Shown here: positions 3,152-37,964 of the stretch, piece by piece
Layout of the letters: each line of letters begins with the position of its first letter
Numbering within the stretch: position 1 is the stretch's first letter
Source: a virus
UHGV virus genome: UHGV-0042156
Strand: one strand, 5' to 3'
Length of the DNA stretch: 38,014 nucleotides
The notes under the pieces: generated by a model
What the model saw: only the letters and a program-made list of their open reading frames with translations
Databases searched by the model: none
What the model was told of the DNA's origin: nothing
Translations under genes and position numbers: made by a program

Positions 3152-3420
3152 TGGGCGGTTCCTTCGTAACCGATGGCTTCTGCAATTTCAGCAAGTGTCT
3201 CTGCACTTTCACCCACTGGCTCATTCATCCAGTCGAAGGAAACAAGCTTACCGCCTTCGATAACGCCGATGTTGAAATCATCACTACCTTGTGTTTTCAG
3301 ACCATGCTTGATTGCCTTATCGCGCTTATCGAAGTCAACGCCGTCTGTCGTGTATTCAACTCCATGGCCTTTCTCGTTGCACCACCAGTACTGCTGAATA
3401 ACGATGTATGATTTTCTCAT
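3148..3420 (-). CDS. Hypothetical early protein
   Basis: 90-aa ORF in operon context. Confidence 0.65.
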   Translation of the reverse strand: MRKSYIVIQQYWWCNEKGHGVEYTTDGVDFDKRDKAIKHGLKTQGSDDFNIGVIEGGKLVSFDWMNEPVGESAETLAEIAEAIGYEGTAQ

Positions 3421-4082
3421 AGCGCGGATCCTTTGCGAATTTGCTCCCTGAACAAGCGGGCTGAGACGATGATGTCTCTGATGCGTACTGATTTTTCGTC
3501 GAACTGCTCACCACCGTTTTTAATATGCGCATCCAGTTCTGCACTGTGATGCTGGATGAAAGCGTTGAGGCACTGCGCCCGCACTTCAGCCATGAAAGCG
3601 TCGGTGGCTGGGGTTTTGTTATCTGACTCCAGCCACTGGTTGTAGTAATAATCGAACATGCCAGTAGGATAACCACATCCGCTGTGCACGTGGTCTTTCA
3701 TAGCAGAACCACACATACAGTAGTCATTGTCAGTATTACTAATGATGTCGATAAGTTGCTGTGTCCGTTGCTTCAACATCGCATTCTCCGCCGCCAGCGC
3801 CGAAAACTTCTCGTGTGCCAACTTAACAGCTGCATCAGCCTGCTTAATTGACTCAGTCGCTTTCTGGTGGTCTTCGGCCAGCCCTGCTAAATCAGCCTCC
3901 AGTTCGGCTAGGCGTTCATTTAATGCATCTCGTTCATCCAGTAGAGCCAGCACAACCTGAGGTGTTACTTTCATACGAAATGCCAGCAATTTTTGAGGCG
4001 TTGCTACTGTTTCAATTGCTACTGCTGCCTCACGCAGTACCTGATAGTCAATCTTGCTCACTGGTTGCCTCCTTTGCGCCAC
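3417..4082 (-). CDS. Ead/Ea22-like coiled-coil protein
   Basis: 221-aa ORF with long coiled-coil ([20 protein letters not shown]...) and Cys/His cluster; typical of the lambdoid early-left region. Confidence 0.65.
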
Positions 4083-4225
4083 ATCGCATTCAGATATTTG
4101 TTGTCATTAACAGAACCGAAACTCTTTCTCTTAAGTAATTCCTCTCTCGATGGCATTGGCTTTACGCGTTGGCGAATAATCATTTCTGCCGGAAGAATGC
4201 CGGGATTGTATGCAAGTCCTCTCAT
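4058..4225 (-). CDS. Small hypothetical protein (start uncertain; alternatives 4243, 4258)
   Basis: In-frame ATGs; chosen start has GAGGA 9 nt upstream. Confidence 0.4.
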
Positions 4226-4235
4226 GGTAAATTCC

Positions 4236-4532
4236 TCAGTCATTACTGATAGCGCCATAGCGTGAGCGGTAATTACGCAGGCGCGGGTCGATATATTCAG
4301 GGAAGTGGGTATATGTGGCTTTGCGGAATGGTCGGATTGATGTCTGGTAAATTCGCTCGCGTTCTTCTTTCTCTGCAAGCCATATACAGTGGCGAAATTC
4401 CTTTTCCTCTTTCGTTTCCTGCGGTAGAGACATTATTCGATCGTAGTTTTTCCTGAATTTATCCAGCACCTCCGATACGGAATTGCCGGAACAGCGGCGC
4501 GCGTCATCCGCACCATACAGAGGCACTGGCAT
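4236..4532 (-). CDS. Hypothetical early protein
   Basis: 98-aa ORF. Confidence 0.6.
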
Positions 4533-5953: not shown

Positions 5954-6072
5954 AACGCCTCCAGTTGTTTCTTTGCTGCTCTGATTAATTGTTTAACTCG
6001 GCGTGATAATTCAGATTCGTGCGGGTAGAAAGCGGACATGACGCCGCTACCCGCGAGCTGAAAGTGCATCAT
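5938..6072 (-). CDS. cIII: cIII-like FtsH inhibitor
   Basis: Manual translation MMHFQLAGSGVMSAFYPHESELSRRVKQLIRAAKKQLEALCAMK; pattern matches lambda CIII (MQYAIAGWPVAGCPSESLLERITRKLR) as recalled; AAGGA 8 nt upstream; overlaps kil start. Confidence 0.5.
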   Translation of the reverse strand: MMHFQLAGSGVMSAFYPHESELSRRVKQLIRAAKKQLEALCAMK

Positions 6073-6145
6073 GGGGAAGTTCCTTAAGTTGAATGTTGTT
6101 GTCATAGCGAAAGAGACTCGAATGAATCTCTGTTGATATGCTGGT

Positions 6146-6170
6146 ATGAAAAAGCCGCACTCAGGCGGCT
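6146..6170 (-). terminator. Rho-independent terminator after orphan gene
   Basis: Minus-strand hairpin AGCCGCCTGAGTGCGGCT followed by TTTTTC; overlaps the stop codon. Confidence 0.6.
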
Positions 6171-7143
6171 ATTTGATGTCTTGCGTGTAGCCTGTACCGC
6201 CACAGCATGAGCATTGCTCTATTGGCGCGTGAATGGTATCCATAAGCGTCGTAAGGAAGTTATCAATCATTTCCTTTAGCTCCCATTCGTTATTGGCTTT
6301 GAACCCTTTAATCGCCGTATAACCTTTGTAATTTTCTTGGTCATGTGTCATTTGGAAAATTTCAATTTCCTTCACCGTGTCAGTCTTAAAGTGCAACTTT
6401 GCTCTTTGCTTCTTGGTTCTGGCAAAAATATCCTGATATGAATATGTGTGAGGCTTAAGGAGCGGTATTATTTTTTTAACGGTAAAGCAAAATGCGTAAT
6501 CACTTGTTATTCTAGCCAGTTTGTTGTCGATGTTATCTTTTACGTGCTGGCGTACAATGTCATACATTTCTTTTGATGAAATTTCACAAGGGCTGTTAGC
6601 CCGCAAAGGCTCAGGAATTATGATGCAGTCAACAAGAGAGTGTTTTACGTTTATGTTTTTTACAACGTACCTCTCCTCCCGGAACTCAACCTGCCTAATT
6701 GCAGAGTAATTAAATTCTGGTGCGTCACGAAAATTTTCAACCTCACATACTAATGTGAATTCAACGTCAACTGGAGAGGTGTAATCAGGTGCAGTATCGT
6801 ATTTGTATTCATAAAGAGAGCCTCTGATATCCTCGTCCACTGCGTCACGCTCATTGTAACTAAGTGTCAAAGGGTATTTTTTACTCTCAAGTTCAGCATC
6901 TTTAAGCTCGTAGCGAACATTAATTCTTTCACCAGAGATAATTCTCTCAACCTTTTCAGGGTAATGTTCAATTTCAAACCAGTTTTTGTGAAAGCTGGCT
7001 TTGGGTTTAACTCCGTCAAATAGGAGATCAGCAATTTTAGATTGATGGTACTGGTAGTGATAACCGTCCTTTGCTGTGCAATCAGTGATAAAACATTTAC
7101 CAGCGTCGGTTTTAATAATGCTTATTTGCAATGCGTTACTCAT
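6169..7143 (-). CDS. AT-rich orphan protein of unknown function (324 aa), candidate accessory/defence gene
   Basis: Long ORF; preferred start MSNALQ at 7143 with GGAGGAG SD (ORF-track start 7239 lacks a usable SD); visibly lower GC than flanks; C-terminal CSCCGGTGY; no motif I recognise. Confidence 0.75.
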   Translation of the reverse strand: MSNALQISIIKTDAGKCFITDCTAKDGYHYQYHQSKIADLLFDGVKPKASFHKNWFEIEHYPEKVERIISGERINVRYELKDAELESKKYPLTLSYNERDAVDEDIRGSLYEYKYDTAPDYTSPVDVEFTLVCEVENFRDAPEFNYSAIRQVEFREERYVVKNINVKHSLVDCIIIPEPLRANSPCEISSKEMYDIVRQHVKDNIDNKLARITSDYAFCFTVKKIIPLLKPHTYSYQDIFARTKKQRAKLHFKTDTVKEIEIFQMTHDQENYKGYTAIKGFKANNEWELKEMIDNFLTTLMDTIHAPIEQCSCCGGTGYTQDIK

Positions 7144-7154
7144 ATCTCCTCCAG

Positions 7155-7182
7155 GCAAAAAGAATGCCCTCACATCGGAGGG
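7155..7182 (-). terminator. Terminator-like hairpin upstream of orphan gene
   Basis: Minus-strand hairpin CCCTCCGATGTGAGGG followed by CATTCTTTTTGCC. Confidence 0.5.
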
Positions 7183-7278
7183 CAAAGAAGATTTCCAATA
7201 ATCAGAACAAGTCGGCTCCTGTTTAGTTACGAGCGACATTGCTCCGTGTATTCACTCGTTGGAATGAATACACAGTGC

Positions 7279-14411: not shown

Positions 14412-14828
14412 ATGAAAAAGCTAACCTTTGAAATTCGATCTCCAGCACATCAGCAAAACGCTATTCACGCAGTACAGCAAATCCTTCCAGACCCAACCAA
14501 GCCAATCGTAGTAACCATTCAGGAGCGCAACCGCAGCATTCGGCAAAATGCACGCCTTCACGCGATGCTATCTGAAATAAGTAAGAAGGCTACATATCAT
14601 GGAAAAGTAAGAAATATTGAGTTTTGGAAGGGGTTATTCGTTTCTGGTTGGCAGATTGCAACCAACCAGCACCCTGAGATTATATCAGGGTTAGAAGGTG
14701 AGCTAATAAACATCAGAGAGAGTACGGCGACTCTATCTGTAAAAAAAATATCCGAAATAATGGACTACATAGAAGCATATTGTGCCATGAACTCAATTCA
14801 TCTTAGCGAATGGAGGAATTATGATTGA
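14412..14828 (+). CDS. ninB: NinB recombination protein (3' part divergent)
   Basis: MKKLTFEIRSPAHQQNAIHAVQQILPDPTKPIVVTIQERNRS matches lambda NinB as recalled, then continues in AT-rich divergent sequence to a new C-terminus. Confidence 0.85.
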   Translation: MKKLTFEIRSPAHQQNAIHAVQQILPDPTKPIVVTIQERNRSIRQNARLHAMLSEISKKATYHGKVRNIEFWKGLFVSGWQIATNQHPEIISGLEGELINIRESTATLSVKKISEIMDYIEAYCAMNSIHLSEWRNYD

Positions 14829-15394
14829 GGTTTGGGTAGATATCGAAGGGATTCCATTTTATCAGGTTAGCAATAAAGGAAATTTCAGGTCTATTACGAG
14901 GGAAGTTACAGTAACATCAACCAGACAGAGGCCATATAAGAAAATAATTAATGGCACTAGCGTAAAACCATTCAAGTGCAAGTCGACAGGATATCTTCAA
15001 ATAAAGGTATACGGTAAGAAATACAGCGCCCACAGGATAGTTGCGAAAGCATTCTGTACAGGGTTCTGTGATGGCTTGGTAGTTAATCACAAAAATGGGC
15101 AAAGAGATGACAATAGGGCTGAAAACCTTGAATGGGTATCACATTCTGAAAACTCAAAGCACGGATATAAACAAAATGGAAGAATACCTATATCGCTAGG
15201 TAAATTTAGTGGTGATCATCCTGCCAGTAAAGCTGTTATTTCTACTGACATGAAAACTGGTGAGGAGGTTTATTATGAAGCAGCTATGGATGCTGTCAGA
15301 GAAGGATTTGATAGTTCGTCAATTAGTCGTTGCTGTAATGGCGAAAGCTCATATCACAAAGGAAGATTCTGGCGATTTGCAAATGAAACAATGA
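14530..15394 (+). mobile_element. Putative HNH cassette: divergent ninB 3' segment plus HNH gene
   Basis: AT-rich block beginning where ninB diverges from lambda and ending where lambda-like ninB tail codons (KARWGDRAA) resume, now fused to the HNH ORF. Confidence 0.4.
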
Positions 15395-15423
15395 AAGCGA
15401 GATGGGGAGATCGGGCTGCATGA
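14821..15423 (+). CDS. HNH endonuclease (NUMOD4 plus HNH), C-terminally fused to ninB tail codons
   Basis: GIPFYQVSNKGNFRS (NUMOD4-like), VNHKNGQRDDNRAENLEWVSHSEN (HNH); ends ...[10 protein letters not shown]. Confidence 0.8.
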   Translation: MIEVWVDIEGIPFYQVSNKGNFRSITREVTVTSTRQRPYKKIINGTSVKPFKCKSTGYLQIKVYGKKYSAHRIVAKAFCTGFCDGLVVNHKNGQRDDNRAENLEWVSHSENSKHGYKQNGRIPISLGKFSGDHPASKAVISTDMKTGEEVYYEAAMDAVREGFDSSSISRCCNGESSYHKGRFWRFANETMKARWGDRAA

Positions 15424-15947
15424 CTATCAAATCAAATACACCAGCACACGACAAGGACTGCTGGAGAACGCCGCTTTGGCTTTTTGATGCACTGGATATT
15501 GAGTTTGGATTCTGGCTGGATTCGGCAGCGAGCGACAAAAATGCTCTGTGCGCTCACTGGCTAACTGAGGCCGACGACGCACTCAATTCTGAGTGGATAA
15601 GCCGCGGTGCAATCTGGAATAACCCACCGTACAGCAATATCAGGCCGTGGGTGGAAAAAGCCGCTGAGCAGTGCATACAACAGCGCCAGACGGTAGTGAT
15701 GCTTGTGCCAGAGGATATGTCTGTCGGATGGTTCAGCAAGGCTCTGGAGAGTGTTGACGAAGTTCGCATCATCACTGATGGACGGATTAATTTTATCGAA
15801 CCATCGACAGGGCTGGAGAAGAAGGGAAACAGCAAAGGTTCCATGCTGCTGATTTGGCGACCGTTCATCAGTCCTCGACGGATGTTTACTACCGTATCCA
15901 AAGCGGCATTGATGGCGATCGGGCAGGGCGTCAGGAGGGCTGCATGA
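15420..15947 (+). CDS. Phage DNA N6-adenine methyltransferase
   Basis: NPPY motif (WNNPPYSN); 175 aa; start overlaps HNH stop (ATGA), the junction used by ninC in lambda. Confidence 0.8.
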
Positions 15948-16533: not shown

Positions 16534-16702
16534 CCCATCCCAATCCCTTCAATACCAGAAAGAAAGCGTCGAGCGGGCTTTAACGTGCGCTAACTGCGGT
16601 CAGAAGCTGCATGTGCTGGAAGTTCACGTGTGCTCAGATTGCTGCGCAGAACTGATGAGCGATCCGAATAGCTCAATGTACGAGGAAGAAGACGATGAAT
16701 GA
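16526..16702 (+). CDS. ninF: NinF
   Basis: Manual translation [58 protein letters not shown], near-identical to lambda NinF as recalled; below ORF-track size cutoff. Confidence 0.7.
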   Translation: MLSPSQSLQYQKESVERALTCANCGQKLHVLEVHVCSDCCAELMSDPNSSMYEEEDDE

Positions 16703-17204
16703 TGTTAAAGAAAAAGATATCCCCGGCTTTGAGGGTATATATAAAGTAAATGAAAATGGAGACATCATTTCATGCCGTAAATCAAAAAAATTATCTCATG
16801 GCATTAAACCAGGAGGATATGCATTTGTCGGTCTGTATCCAGGTGGCGGGAAAAGACCATCATATAAAATGGTTCACAGAATTGTTGCAGAAGTATTTAT
16901 TGATAACCCAGATGGCAAACCGGAAGTTAATCACAAGGATGGAAATAAACTTAATAATAAAGTTGAAAATCTTGAGTGGGTAACGCGAACAGAAAATGCG
17001 AAACATGGATTTGATTCCGGATTGCTTGTTCATGGGTTTAATCATCACTTCTGCAAACTAACGCCAGAACAAGTGAAATCAATATATAAATCAAAAGGCA
17101 AATACAGAGATATAGCCAAAGAATTTGGTGTTTGTGCGCAGACAGTGTGCAACATAAAAAACAAATCAGCGTACCGACGTTTTTTGGAGGGGATTGATGT
17201 TTAG
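16695..17204 (+). CDS. HNH endonuclease (NUMOD4 plus HNH plus C-terminal HTH)
   Basis: IPGFEGIYKVNENGDIIS, VNHKDGNKLNNKVENLEWVTRTEN, DIAKEFGVCAQTVCNIKN; overlaps ninF stop and next gene start; AT-rich. Confidence 0.8.
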   Translation: MNDVKEKDIPGFEGIYKVNENGDIISCRKSKKLSHGIKPGGYAFVGLYPGGGKRPSYKMVHRIVAEVFIDNPDGKPEVNHKDGNKLNNKVENLEWVTRTENAKHGFDSGLLVHGFNHHFCKLTPEQVKSIYKSKGKYRDIAKEFGVCAQTVCNIKNKSAYRRFLEGIDV

Positions 17205-17831: not shown

Positions 17832-18016
17832 ACGCCACAATTCAAACGATACCAGAGCTTCTTATCCAGACACGAGGCAATCAGACCGAAGTGGCAAGGA
17901 TGCTTTCCTGCGCAAGAGGAACAGTGCTCAAGTACAACCGAGACAGCAAAGGCGAGCGTCACGTAATAGTTAACGGCGTCCTGATGGTCAAACAGGGCAA
18001 GAGGGGAAGACGATGA
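17828..18016 (+). CDS. ninH: NinH
   Basis: TIPELLIQTRGNQTEVARMLSCARGTVLKYNRDSKGERHVIVNGVLMV colinear with lambda NinH. Confidence 0.7.
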   Translation: MNATIQTIPELLIQTRGNQTEVARMLSCARGTVLKYNRDSKGERHVIVNGVLMVKQGKRGRR

Positions 18017-18531
18017 GCATAAGAGAACTAAACCTCACCAAAGAACAGCACGATTGGCTGAATGGCTGGCTTGAACTGTGGGGCGCATGGGTTTATTCAG
18101 GCCGCCTGGAAAAGCGCATGAGCAGCGTAATAGCGAAGTTCATGGAGAGCGTAGAGCCGGGAAGAGTTATGACAAGGCCAATGTGTAATGATGATGATGG
18201 AATGTTGATTTCTCAGGTCGTCGATTCCGTCATGTACATTGACAAGAAAGCCTTTAGCATCCTCCTCAGCTACTACGCTCATGGTTCATCTAAGCGAGCA
18301 ATTGCATCCTACTATCACGCGACTGCAAAGCCACGCAAGATGTGTGGACGTGGTGGCGAGGGATGGAGAAAACCTTCACTGGCAACCTGTAGAAACGAAA
18401 TTGACGACATCCTGAAAGCGTCATTATTTGTTTTATACCAGCCGATGCAAAATGCTTTCAAAATGCGTAAACGTGTTGAGAAAGTTAAGCATGTTGCTGT
18501 TAAAAGCCTTGACATGCAATTAGCCATTTAG
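18013..18531 (+). CDS. Q: Late-gene antiterminator Q (non-lambda type)
   Basis: 172-aa ORF immediately upstream of late promoter/terminator and lysis genes; not colinear with lambda Q. Confidence 0.8.
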   Translation: MSIRELNLTKEQHDWLNGWLELWGAWVYSGRLEKRMSSVIAKFMESVEPGRVMTRPMCNDDDGMLISQVVDSVMYIDKKAFSILLSYYAHGSSKRAIASYYHATAKPRKMCGRGGEGWRKPSLATCRNEIDDILKASLFVLYQPMQNAFKMRKRVEKVKHVAVKSLDMQLAI

Positions 18532-18538
18532 CCATAAT
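18509..18538 (+). promoter_or_regulatory. Candidate late promoter pR-prime (TTGACA-N18-CATAAT) overlapping Q 3' end
   Basis: TTGACA at 18509..18514, CATAAT at 18533..18538, just upstream of the terminator. Confidence 0.4.
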
Positions 18539-20308: not shown

Positions 20309-20497
20309 ATGTCATCTCCAATCATGAAGTATTTCGCTTATCAACACCTCCCCGCGCATCTGCAGGAAGTAAGTAAGCCAATCGGTGACCTTGCGACACT
20401 GATGGATGAATCACTGCCTGACAGTGCTGAAAAGTCAGCAGGTCTCCGCAAGCTGCTCGAAGCTAAAGATGCACTGATGCGAGCAAAGCTGGGGTAA
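20309..20497 (+). CDS. Hypothetical small protein (62 aa)
   Basis: GAGGG SD; sits between two terminators. Confidence 0.6.
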   Translation: MSSPIMKYFAYQHLPAHLQEVSKPIGDLATLMDESLPDSAEKSAGLRKLLEAKDALMRAKLG

Positions 20498-20597: not shown

Positions 20598-20840
20598 ATG
20601 GCAGAGATTATTCCCATGACTGAAGAACAGAAATTCCAGTTAGAGATTTACAAGCTGGTCATGAACCAGAACGCAGCCGCAGAAGAAGCATTTCAATTCA
20701 TTGGCACTGACGAACTGAAGCTTGAGCTATTTAAAATTCACTTCCAGTCAGGTGGCGCTAATTCAGATATCACGACCCGAACTATCGAAGCGGTGCGTAA
20801 ATCGAGGGAAGCGTTAGACCTGTTCACCACCGGAGCATGA
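20598..20840 (+). CDS. Hypothetical small protein (80 aa)
   Basis: ACGGAG SD; stop 1 nt before next start. Confidence 0.6.
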   Translation: MAEIIPMTEEQKFQLEIYKLVMNQNAAAEEAFQFIGTDELKLELFKIHFQSGGANSDITTRTIEAVRKSREALDLFTTGA

Positions 20841-20841
20841 T

Positions 20842-21330
20842 ATGACCACTATTGCATGGGATGGAAAGACCCTGGCATCTGACACCCAGGCATCATCTGG
20901 TGATGTTGTGTGTTCGTATACAGAACAAAAGATTTACACACCGCCAGAATCTGGGTGGGAGGTTTGCGGCAGTAAAGTGGTTGCATTAGGTTGTTCTGGT
21001 GATTGCGGCGCGGAGATGGAATTGCAGGAACTGCTTAAGAACAACCTGACGTATGCATCAGAATTTCTCCCGACATTCTCTTTCACCGCGCTTGCTATCA
21101 TCGGTGCTGGTCGTGCTTACATCATCTCAAAAGAGAAAGGCGAAACGCGGGCGAGTATTTCGCGACAGGTTGAACCGTATGCCATTGGTAGTGGTTGGCT
21201 GATTGCTCGCACAGCCATGCACTGCGGCAAAAATGCGAGAGAAGCGGTACAAGTCGCAATTGATATTGACTGCTATTCCGGCGGCAGCGTTGATTCGTTC
21301 CCCGCTGGGAAGCAAACAGAAGGGAAATAA
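20842..21330 (+). CDS. HslV/proteasome-beta-like Ntn-hydrolase (stand-alone)
   Basis: 162 aa; N-terminal MTTIAWDG (Thr nucleophile position as in HslV MTTIVSV); AIGSG motif; overall colinear with E. coli HslV. Confidence 0.7.
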
Positions 21331-21335
21331 TCAAT

Positions 21336-21824
21336 ATGGCAGCACCAAAGGGCAACCGATTTTGGGAGGCCCGCAGTAGTCATGGGCGAAATCCTAAATT
21401 CGAATCGCCTGAGGCGCTGTGGGCTGCTTGTTGTGAATACTTCGAGTGGGCTGATGATAACCCACTATGGGAGGGTAAGGTATTTTCATATCAGGGAGAA
21501 ATAATTAAGGCTAATGTCCCTAAGATGCGAGCCATGACTATTTCAGGATTGTGTACCTTCCTTGATATCACCAGGCAAACGTGGGGAACCTTCCGGTCAA
21601 TGGAAGGTTTTTCTGACGTCACATCACGAGCGGAAGACATCATCTACGACCAGAAATTCTCTGGCGCAGCCGCTGACCTTCTCAACGCTAACATCATCGC
21701 CCGTGATTTGGGCCTCAAAGAGCAGTCGCAAGTTGAAGACGTGACACCTGATAAGGGAGATCGCGATAAGCGGCGCTCTCGTATCAAGGAGCTATTCAAC
21801 CGTGGAACTGGACGCGATTCTTGA
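21336..21824 (+). CDS. terS: Terminase small subunit (P22 gp3-like)
   Basis: 162-aa ORF immediately upstream of and overlapping terL. Confidence 0.85.
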
Positions 21825-35774: not shown

Positions 35775-36059
35775 AAGCTTTCCTACAACAAGTCCGAACA
35801 TTAAGAACGCAAAGTTCAATAAATCTCTGTCCATAAATCCTCCTGTTTACCAAAACTATATCAAACTTTAACGCAATGCTGCGCAACTTAAGTGACTTTC
35901 AGGTTGATAACAGACACTCTTTTTTGCATGATTCCTTTAGACCATCACAATTGATGAAGAATCATGAAAAGAAGAACTCTTCTAAAGTCTTTGCTCGGCC
36001 TGACGTCACTCTTACCAGTTAAGTTTGCAGCATCTCAAAACCTGCAAGGTAAAAGTATA

Positions 36060-37964
36060 ATGTCAGACATTACACCCAATGTTGTAGTGAGTATGCCTTC
36101 GCAACTCTTCACTATGGCTCGTTCTTTTAAAGCCGTAGCTAATGGTAAAATTTATATCGGTAAAATTGACACTGACCCGGTAAATCCTGAAAACCAGATT
36201 CAGGTTTATGTGGAAAATGAAGACGGTTCTCACGTTCCTGTTTCGCAACCAATCATCATTAACGCTGCTGGATATCCGGTATATAACGGACAGATTGCCA
36301 AGTTCGTTACTGTGCAAGGCCATTCCATGGCTGTTTATGATGCGTATGGGGCGCAACAATTCTATTTTCCAAACGTATTGAAGTATGATCCAGATCAATT
36401 AGAAAGCAGGTTGTCGGAAACTAATAGTACAGTAATGATATCTGGAGTAACCGCATCAAAAATAGCAAGTAATGTTATTGCAACAGAATATCTTGAGTCG
36501 CCAAATGTATATGATGTGTTTGTTACGTATGGGCAGTCAAATAGCGCAGGTGAGGCTATTTTATCTGGCGATACGTCAGGCTTTCCTGCCGCTCTGCCGA
36601 AATCACTAATGTATGATTTTAGTGATGGAGCAATAAAGCCAATTATACAGAATGTGGTTAGTTCTTCTGGCGTTGCATCATCTGGACATGCATGGGGGGA
36701 ATTCGAGAATGAATGGTATCGCCTTAGCGGGCGCGGTTCAGTGGAGGTACACTGCGGCCGTGGCGCAACTACCATTGCACAGCTATCAAAAGGGACCACA
36801 TACTACACGCTGTTGGTAAATGCCGTGGCGTCAGCTAAACAGGCAATGATTGCCGCTGGTTTGCCTGTCGGTAAAACGTACGTGATGTACCACCAGGGTG
36901 AGTCGGATATGACGGCAGGGACAACATACAATGCTTATAGAGACAGCTTTATAGCCTTGATAGATGATCTGAAAACCGATATTAATTTTGATTTATTTTG
37001 TAATTTTACCGTTGGTTGCCCGGGGAACCGAACGGAAGAATCATGGGCTGCTATTCAAAATGCGCAAAGGTGGGTTTGTAATAGCAAGACTAACGCTGTG
37101 ACAGTATTTGACGGTTGCCCTTCATTTTTAAAAGGCGATGGCAATATTGGCACTACTGATGGAGGCGTTCACTATACGCAACGCGGTTACAATACAATGG
37201 GGCGAGAAGGTGCCAGAGGATTATGGTCATTAGTTAAAGGTGGGGCAAGCAATAAAACCTCAACCGATTTAGCACAATATTCAAATTTTGCCCCACCGTG
37301 GACAAGGGCGAAATTAGTCGCCGGTACTATTAAATACAGCAATGATAACGCTAAATGGGTTCTTTTATCTAAAGAAGTAAACAGTGAATGGAAAGTTTCC
37401 AATGCCCATAAATTAGTTGTTTCTGCTGATGGGGAATATTTTTCTGTAGAAATTGCAGACAATGCCGAAAACTGGTTTTATGCCGCCGCGGGCGTCGACC
37501 GCGCTACAGCTATAACAGGTGTCAGGTCCTACGCAGAACCTCTTCGTGTGGGAAATGCATTCACATTAAAAATTACTATGTATGCCGACGTTTCTTTCCT
37601 TGTTAATACAAAAACAGGAGTCATTCGTTATGGAAGACCGCCTTCAGGCTCTGGTGTCCCAGAGTGGATTAGAAATAATATCTCTGTTTCTGTGGTGAGT
37701 GCTGGCATCGTGGAAATAACGCATGGCCGCACTGCAACAATGCCATCAGCAACATATTACGCCACTAGTGACGGAACATTATCTGCGGCAAATGTATCTG
37801 TATATGCCGGGTCAACCACAACGACAAGAGTTTATTGTGATAAAGCAAACACTGATAATCCATGGGTGGTTGTTACACTTAGAGATTTACTAATTACTCC
37901 TGCCAACATGCAACATTACGATATTTCAATTAACTTTAACGGAATTTATGCGCCATCCGCATGA
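36060..37964 (+). CDS. Tailspike: P22-type head-binding domain fused to SASA/SGNH-like carbohydrate esterase domain
   Basis: [46 protein letters not shown] matches P22 gp9 head-binding domain; central [14 protein letters not shown] and DGGVHYT motifs resemble sialate-O-acetylesterase-type esterases; ORF-track start 35964 rejected. Confidence 0.85.

Follow-up and report, generated by a model that had tools for sequence, protein, structure and literature searches.

Between the DUF2560 gene and the small terminase gene of a P22-like Escherichia coli prophage lies an accessory gene whose product, judged feature by feature against the published description, is a member of the PPH family of proteasome homologs. 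The family, the fold and the catalytic competence of this protein can be assigned with high confidence. We consider it probable, with clearly less assurance, that the protein is a late-expressed peptidase with an N-terminal Thr1 nucleophile, carried as accessory cargo, which would work without canonical docking to HslU; its late timing and its independence from HslU stand at about even chances. The gene is not a discovery: the novelty implied in the preliminary description of this DNA does not hold, since the family is already in PHROG 1040, is labeled in GenBank, and was defined bioinformatically in 2021 as PPH (PMC8665760).

Gene Layout and Prophage Context

The gene and its immediate surroundings are laid out as follows, with coordinates given for the window, that is, the whole 38,014-nt stretch of DNA that was analyzed.

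20842..21330 (+), gene for the PPH-family, proteasome/HslV-like Ntn-hydrolase; ATG start, 162 aa plus stop
20832..20835 (+), Shine-Dalgarno-like GGAG, read from the sequence; the ATG lies 6 nt downstream
20598..20840 (+), DUF2560 gene, the upstream neighbor (Pfam PF10834, E 1.1e-43); context, with no demonstrated partner
21336..21824 (+), small terminase gene of the P22 gp3 type, the downstream neighbor (Pfam GP3_package, E 8.3e-31; PHROG 606)

The DUF2560 stop codon (20838-20840) abuts the PPH start codon, which suggests that PPH translation would be coupled to that of the upstream gene, and only 5 nt separate the PPH stop from the small terminase start. The protein begins with MTTI, the same first residues as E. 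coli HslV, and contains PYAIGSGW. The colinearity of MTTI and AIGSG with HslV that had been pointed out earlier is real, as the PDB chains of E. coli HslV start with TTIVSV and contain AIGSGG. PADLOC defense-system models matched neither the PPH protein nor its two upstream neighbors. Sharing the accessory slot with the PPH gene is a 62-aa ORF (20309-20497, +) between Rz and DUF2560, which belongs to PHROG 1761, of unknown function (E 7.5e-33); its faint match to the Pfam Acb2/Tad1 hairpin domain stays below threshold (E 0.2; 12.3 bits, where 27 would be needed) and is probably noise.

A stretch of the E. coli MS 115-1 chromosome matches the window at 100% identity, and the window represents a complete P22-like prophage. 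Its early and regulatory genes encode an integrase, a CI-type repressor, an O-type replication protein, a primase-helicase, a Dam methylase, and the Q antiterminator; the late genes comprise holin, lysozyme, Rz, the 62-aa ORF, DUF2560, PPH, and the gp3/gp2-type terminase; and the structural genes comprise those for the P22 portal, scaffold, coat, gp4, gp10, gp7, gp20, and tailspike. No gene for an AAA+ unfoldase is encoded in the 38,014 nt, in agreement with the earlier remark that the enzyme has no partner ATPase nearby. Genes are tightly packed from the lysis genes to the terminase genes, and two features upstream of them bear on their transcription.

18013-18531, Q antiterminator gene
18509..18538 (+), sigma-70 promoter-like site at the end of Q; 11/12 consensus, the sole strong upstream match on this strand

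From its sequence, the latter site is presumed to be the late promoter for the lysis genes, PPH, and the structural genes. A simple promoter scan of the + strand found no promoter-like site between 18538 and 21330; because PPH thus has no promoter of its own, it would be made only late, from the Q-antiterminated transcript.

Several other genes of the prophage were noted along the way. A 356-aa protein encoded at 6169-7239 (-) matches Pfam Gad1 (Gabija anti-defence 1) over the whole domain (E 9.1e-68), so the early region of the prophage holds at least one recognized counter-defense gene. Two of the three genes at 14821-15423, 16695-17204, and 15402-15947 (+) encode NUMOD4/HNH_3 homing-type endonucleases, and these flank the gene for the Dam-family N6-adenine methyltransferase in the nin-like region. 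In the tailspike (35964-37964, +), a head-binding domain of the P22 kind is joined to a carbohydrate esterase domain, SASA, of the sialate O-acetylesterase type, which suggests a deacetylating, receptor-destroying activity in place of the P22 endorhamnosidase.

Family Assignment

The homology of the protein was seen only with PHROGs and with a family profile and not in single-sequence searches. A single-sequence search of Pfam returned no family at E ≤ 1 (PF00227 included), and one of the PDB returned no match. None of the HslV models of NCBIfam recognizes the protein, the sole match in that collection being a sub-threshold one to archaeal proteasome beta (E 0.018; 14.7 bits, where 224 would be needed). 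PHROGs places it in phrog_1040, "peptidase HslV family" (E 3.7e-37), and relatives in GenBank phage records already carry the label "peptidase HslV family" or "nucleophile aminohydrolase." The preliminary description had proposed fold prediction and comparison with HslV, and HslV is indeed the closest solved fold; its picture of a stand-alone Ntn-hydrolase of the proteasome-beta/HslV kind is upheld, in that fold and PHROG/profile homology agree.

Among the 22 new proteasome homologs that Fuchs, Alva and Lupas presented (Bioinformatics 2021; PMC8665760) is PPH, a group of proteins of ~140 residues from Caudovirales and prophage regions that are without helix H2 and the C-terminal S12/H5 and that are grouped with HslV and BPH. 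The window protein has the Thr1/Asp17/Lys33 core and the oxyanion glycine, is compact and without H2 or a propeptide, and is phage-borne. The family is far larger than the 324 sequences counted in 2021 (PMC8665760): our family profile retrieved 12,946 clusters (50% identity) at E ≤ 1e-3 and 9,531 at E ≤ 1e-10. Relatives are carried by 107 phage records and 139 IMG/VR stretches, and most PPH phages have Proteobacteria as hosts. The median length in the family is 151 aa (5th to 95th percentile, 141-194); the window protein is longer, at 162 aa, because of four short insertions of the enterobacterial sub-clade (residues ~35-41, 69-71, 79-82, and 99-103) and a junction-derived tail.

Some members are longer still. 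Four relatives of 194-250 aa (P0107, P0170, P0193, and P0228) were noted, some of them with Cys-rich C-terminal tails; that of P0107 contains CxxCxGxG-type repeats resembling the DnaJ zinc-finger motif, and no Pfam domain was detected in the C-terminal extensions of the longer members. Two IMG/VR contigs, one of 227 kb and the other of 22 kb, carry tandem PPH paralogs (L037 ~6001-7200, 180 + 216 aa; L038 ~3200-4500, 244 + 178 aa). By analogy with alpha/beta proteasomes, these hint that some phages may build PPH hetero-oligomers.

In the literature, we found no functional study of any PPH, only mentions in genome announcements and the 2021 classification paper. One jumbo-phage paper limits itself to noting an HslV that has no accompanying HslU (PMC7823757). 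A paper on a Dnd anti-restriction protein was considered as a functional lead and rejected, as it concerns transcription of the host hslV only.

Catalytic Residues and Selection

Conservation was scored in an alignment of 241 family members, 141 of which are representatives of clusters at 50% identity. The codons for the residues discussed are:

20845..20847 (+), Thr2; T in 229/241 and S in 11/241; would be the Thr1 nucleophile once Met is gone
20881..20883 (+), Asp14; D in 239/241; aligned with HslV D17 (proteasome Asp17)
20929..20931 (+), Lys30; K in 240/241; aligned with HslV K33 (Lys33)
20989..21000 (+), G50-C-S-G53; position 50 is G in 181/241 and A in 53/241, and G53 is conserved in 239/241
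21187..21195 (+), G116-S117-G118; G in 241, S in 216 (plus T in 15), and G in 240 of 241
21268..21282 (+), D143-C-Y-S146-G147; D in 218, S/T/C in 240, and G in 235 of 241

The HMM alignment to E. coli HslV starts at residue 14 and pairs G50 with HslV G45, G53 with G48, and G116-S117-G118 with G123-S124-G125 of the AIGSGG motif, so that S117 falls on Ser124. We take G50 to be the oxyanion-hole Gly47 of the proteasome and G53 to be its Gly50, by our own count along the T. acidophilum beta sequence, and G116-S117-G118 corresponds to the proteasome Ser129 motif. By motif spacing, D143, S146, and G147 presumably stand for proteasome Asp166, Ser169, and Gly170; the D-x-x-S-G-G spacing is the proteasome-beta pattern. 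Thr2, which precedes the aligned region, is equated with HslV Thr1 because both mature chains would start with TTI.

Nearly all members start with M-T/S and have no propeptide. The proposal of an N-terminal Thr nucleophile, also made in the preliminary description, is supported by the occurrence of Thr or Ser at position 2 in 240 of the 241 relatives. Methionine aminopeptidase removes Met when Thr follows, and by analogy with E. coli HslV, whose PDB chains start at Thr, the host enzyme would be expected to process Met1 here. Selection on the gene was gauged by comparison with other copies: dN/dS was 0.085 against the copy in phage Dewey, which is 90% identical, and 0.14-0.21 against more distant ones. 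The value of 0.085 indicates strong purifying selection, with the catalytic apparatus preserved. The hairpin beside the active site is much more conserved than the remainder of the protein. Taken together, the conserved residues predict peptidase activity.

Insertion and Rarity

Phage E212 has flanks that are 97% identical to those in the window and is without PPH; in its genome, DUF2560 is followed by a 79-nt spacer (L088 2715-2793) and then by gp3. The PPH gene replaces most of a spacer of this type. The left junction is the DUF2560 stop codon, and the right junction falls in conserved sequence ahead of gp3, so that it lies within the end of the PPH gene itself.

21305..21330 (+), 3' insertion junction, from the alignment with E212; KQTEGK plus the stop codon is resident spacer/ribosome-binding region

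The tail that PPH acquired at this junction amounts to 6-7 residues. The E212 spacer contains a 23-codon mini-ORF, MATQGFDNPSKFRDEWDKQAEGK, which has the same KQ-EGK-stop end and overlaps the ribosome-binding region of gp3.

The insertion is rare. Of 5,426 complete E. coli genomes, 10 contain PPH, six of the ten being from one strain series, although the 1.2-kb flank with DUF2560 has matches in 2,586 E. coli genomes, all but those 10 without PPH. The 5 kb around the gene matched 287 phage records, of which phage Dewey alone has PPH. The gene is found with small terminases of either the P22-gp3 type or the Sf6 type. This occurrence with either terminase type, together with the rarity, argues that PPH is mobile accessory cargo and not part of the head module. 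In one locus with PPH (E. coli Res13-Lact-PEB17-18, L085 3995-4420), the gene 3' of it is annotated as a "ubiquitin carboxyl-hydrolase" (WP_194153723.1). This candidate was rejected: at 99% identity to a protein with a match to Pfam Sf6_terminase (E 1.8e-44), it is a small terminase subunit that was probably misnamed in RefSeq.

The same placement of the gene bears on the idea that PPH serves in morphogenesis, as a protease for one of the virion proteins of this phage. The gene sits in the late operon, adjoins packaging and head genes, and does so in many lineages. On the other side, the full set of standard P22 portal, scaffold, and coat proteins is present here, nearly all relatives that have this set do without PPH (it is absent from 286 of the 287 related phage records), and proteolysis is not a step in the maturation of P22-type heads. 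The earlier judgment that the protein is not plausibly a head maturation protease therefore stands, and we regard such a role as the least probable of those considered.

Genomic Neighborhoods of PPH Relatives

For the comparison of neighbors, 80 IMG/VR loci, four annotated phage loci, and the window were sorted into 39 PPH groups with less than 70% identity between them; 38 additional bacterial loci were compared, with ORFs called by a GC3-based caller. No conserved partner gene emerged, in that no neighbor cluster was common to more than 7 of the 39 groups. No AAA+ ATPase was found among the annotated recurrent neighbor clusters of the 39 groups, annotation having been largely confined to recurrent clusters. 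DUF2560 lies immediately 5' of PPH in 16 fetched loci, and the cluster to which it belongs has 18 members distributed over 4 of the 39 groups. In at least 18 of the 39 groups, a terminase subunit is encoded within three genes of PPH; these terminases represent five Pfam families (GP3_package, Sf6_terminase, Terminase_2, Terminase_6N/6C, and Terminase_3). Such repeated placement at the border of the packaging genes is consistent with late expression and with a recombination hot spot.

A different setting was found in Acetobacteraceae. In five loci from Roseomonas and Falsiroseomonas (L096, L097, L106, L108, and L110), PPH (~6001-6411) occupies a conserved chromosomal and apparently non-phage context, with neighbors that, on visual inspection of the sequences, look like pyrB, gatA/gatB, plsY, and dprA. 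From this conserved setting it follows that a phage-independent role must exist there. Non-phage contexts had previously been described in Pseudoalteromonas and Mesorhizobium (PMC8665760), to which the Acetobacteraceae are added here.

Fold and the Missing Helix H2

The predicted model shows the Ntn alpha-beta-beta-alpha fold with a single helix (57-66) between strands 48-53 and 81-88, where HslV has two. In the HMM alignment, the helix H2 segment of HslV (~residues 66-92) has no counterpart in PPH. Beyond strand 150-154, the model ends in a short tail of low pLDDT (blocks 77 and 44), which is absent from most relatives; there is no S12/H5 and no extra domain.

In HslV, the pocket between subunits that receives the C-terminal tail of HslU involves Phe54 and Phe57 of H1, Ala79 and Lys80 of H2, and Gln114 (PMC6429459). 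Pocket positions 79 and 80 are deleted in PPH along with H2, and the residues aligned with Phe54 and Phe57 are Met59 and Gln62 in the window protein and are variable across the family (M/L/E and Q/L/V, respectively). Because the apical helix H2, a part of the HslU-tail pocket, is absent, PPH would not dock to HslU in the canonical manner. The suggestion that the phage protein uses host HslU, or acts as a decoy for it, is weakened by these same features.

Possible Partnership with an Unfoldase

These observations bear most directly on the possibility that PPH rings dock onto host HslU or a ClpX-like AAA+ unfoldase and so give the phage an ATP-dependent protease under its own control. HslV is the closest solved fold, and the MTTI N terminus is that of E. 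coli HslV. The hosts of PPH phages are mostly proteobacterial, and Proteobacteria generally have HslUV. Furthermore, four jumbo phages with PPH (MET_P1_082_240, ChrisDB, pEa_SNUABM_4, and pSal-SNUABM-04) also encode an HslU-like AAA+ ATPase. The jumbo phages with both genes (Seoulvirus, Machinavirus, and relatives) are related to each other. The phage ATPases for which positions were recorded, that of phage RAY included, are:

L127 1353-3062, RAY gp116, HslU-like ATPase
L129 2501-4243, ChrisDB gp132, HslU-like ATPase
L130 2501-4261, MET_P1_082_240 hslU, HslU-like ATPase

The last of these matches E. coli HslU with an E value of 2e-48 and has an enlarged inserted domain of ~300 residues. RAY gp116, the homolog of these ATPases, localizes to the phage nucleus (bioRxiv 10.1101/2023.02.24.529968).

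Set against such a partnership are the loss of H2 with pocket residues 79/80 and the lack of conservation at the pocket positions of H1. The C-terminal tail of HslU is hydrophobic, and the phage ATPases end in WTENA, RRISD, or LVNN, none of which is; their genes lie ~100 kb from that for PPH. Next to the ATPase gene, on its 3' side, the Seoulvirus and Machinavirus examples have small genes of phrog_7478 ("head maturation protease"), which are unlike PPH. These small ORFs were examined as PPH-like candidates and rejected, as they gave hhalign probabilities of at most 0.2% and belong to other PHROGs (phrog_7478). RAY has the ATPase, yet its gp1, at the Machinavirus PPH position, is not annotated as PPH, a statement that concerns that position only. 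PPH is also listed for Actinobacteria, for which HslV is not (Table 1, PMC8665760); this argument is weak because the text of the same paper calls PPH proteobacterial. The jumbo-phage ATPases may keep a PPH-unfoldase partnership alive, but on balance we consider capture of a host unfoldase by the window protein unlikely.

Proposed Role and Remaining Alternatives

In the reading that we favor, a late-expressed threonine peptidase carried as accessory cargo, host methionine aminopeptidase would strip Met1 and so bare the Thr1 nucleophile, which would be supported by Asp14, Lys30, the G50/G53 loop, G116-S117-G118, and D143-x-x-S146-G147. The gene would act as a moron-like accessory element between DUF2560 and the small terminase, made late in lytic growth, and its product would cleave a host or phage substrate.

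A serious rival is that PPH resembles connectase in its action: a monomer or small oligomer would cut or ligate one sequence in one target, with no degradation chamber. The loss of one apical helix, and the much stronger conservation of the active-site hairpin than of the rest of the protein, favor such specific processing or ligation, to which we nevertheless assign a rather low probability. Just as improbable in our estimate is that PPH is a self-sufficient viral mini-proteasome, deployed late to destroy a specific host protein, for instance an immune sensor of terminase, portal, or capsid, and acting either with no ATPase at all or through a host unfoldase to which it would bind in a novel way. 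If true, this would account for the frequent siting of PPH beside the packaging genes of unrelated phages and would give the proteasome family its first functional member from a virus.

Much less probable is that PPH is a decoy or poison that shuts down host HslUV without catalysis, either by titrating HslU away or by entering mixed assemblies with HslV. Homology to HslV and the presence of a single small gene without a partner speak for it, but a decoy would not need the catalytic set that is nearly invariant in the 241 relatives, the surface for HslU docking is precisely the part that is deleted, and a decoy makes little sense in the conserved non-phage chromosomal contexts of Acetobacteraceae.

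The question of what PPH does is not a small one, with 9,531 clusters, essentially invariant catalytic residues, and a distribution over jumbo phages, small temperate phages, and chromosomal loci. The copy in the window is a convenient entry point: its P22-like prophage is inducible, the E. coli strain that carries it is well studied, near-isogenic relatives without PPH are available, and hslU and hslV can be deleted in the host. Should PPH prove to be a protease that acts against a host factor, either independently of an ATPase or by hijacking an unfoldase, it would represent a new class of tool for phage takeover or counter-defense, and it would also clarify the minimal size of a protease with the proteasome fold.

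Comparison with Known Systems

The window protein is like the published PPH proteins in its Met-Thr start, the absence of a propeptide, the retention of Thr, Asp, and Lys, the absence of H2 and S12/H5, and its origin in a proteobacterial tailed phage or prophage. It differs from them in its length of 162 aa (against ~140 aa), its short insertions, and the 6-7 residue tail from the junction. Compared with HslV (ClpQ; MEROPS T1), PPH has ~21% identity and is without H2 and part of the HslU pocket. HslV is a dodecamer of two hexameric rings that is activated by HslU and is encoded together with hslU, whereas the window PPH is not in an hslU operon. The beta subunits of the 20S proteasome have ~200 aa or more and mostly carry propeptides, neither of which is true of PPH; they also need alpha rings, which PPH would not.

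BPH and Anbu are cellular proteins of ~185-230 aa that retain both H1 and H2, in contrast to the phage-borne PPH without H2. BPH is reported to form heptameric double rings (PMC5777263). BPH and Anbu, which have the same catalytic residues, are still called hypothetical proteases, and BPH has no known partner. Connectase, an archaeal protein ligase, resembles PPH in combining the proteasome fold with loss of apical helices; there the fold serves sequence-specific, non-degradative ligation. By its predicted Ntn fold and N-terminal Thr, which presumes removal of Met, the window protein belongs with all of these in the MEROPS T1/Ntn proteasome superfamily.
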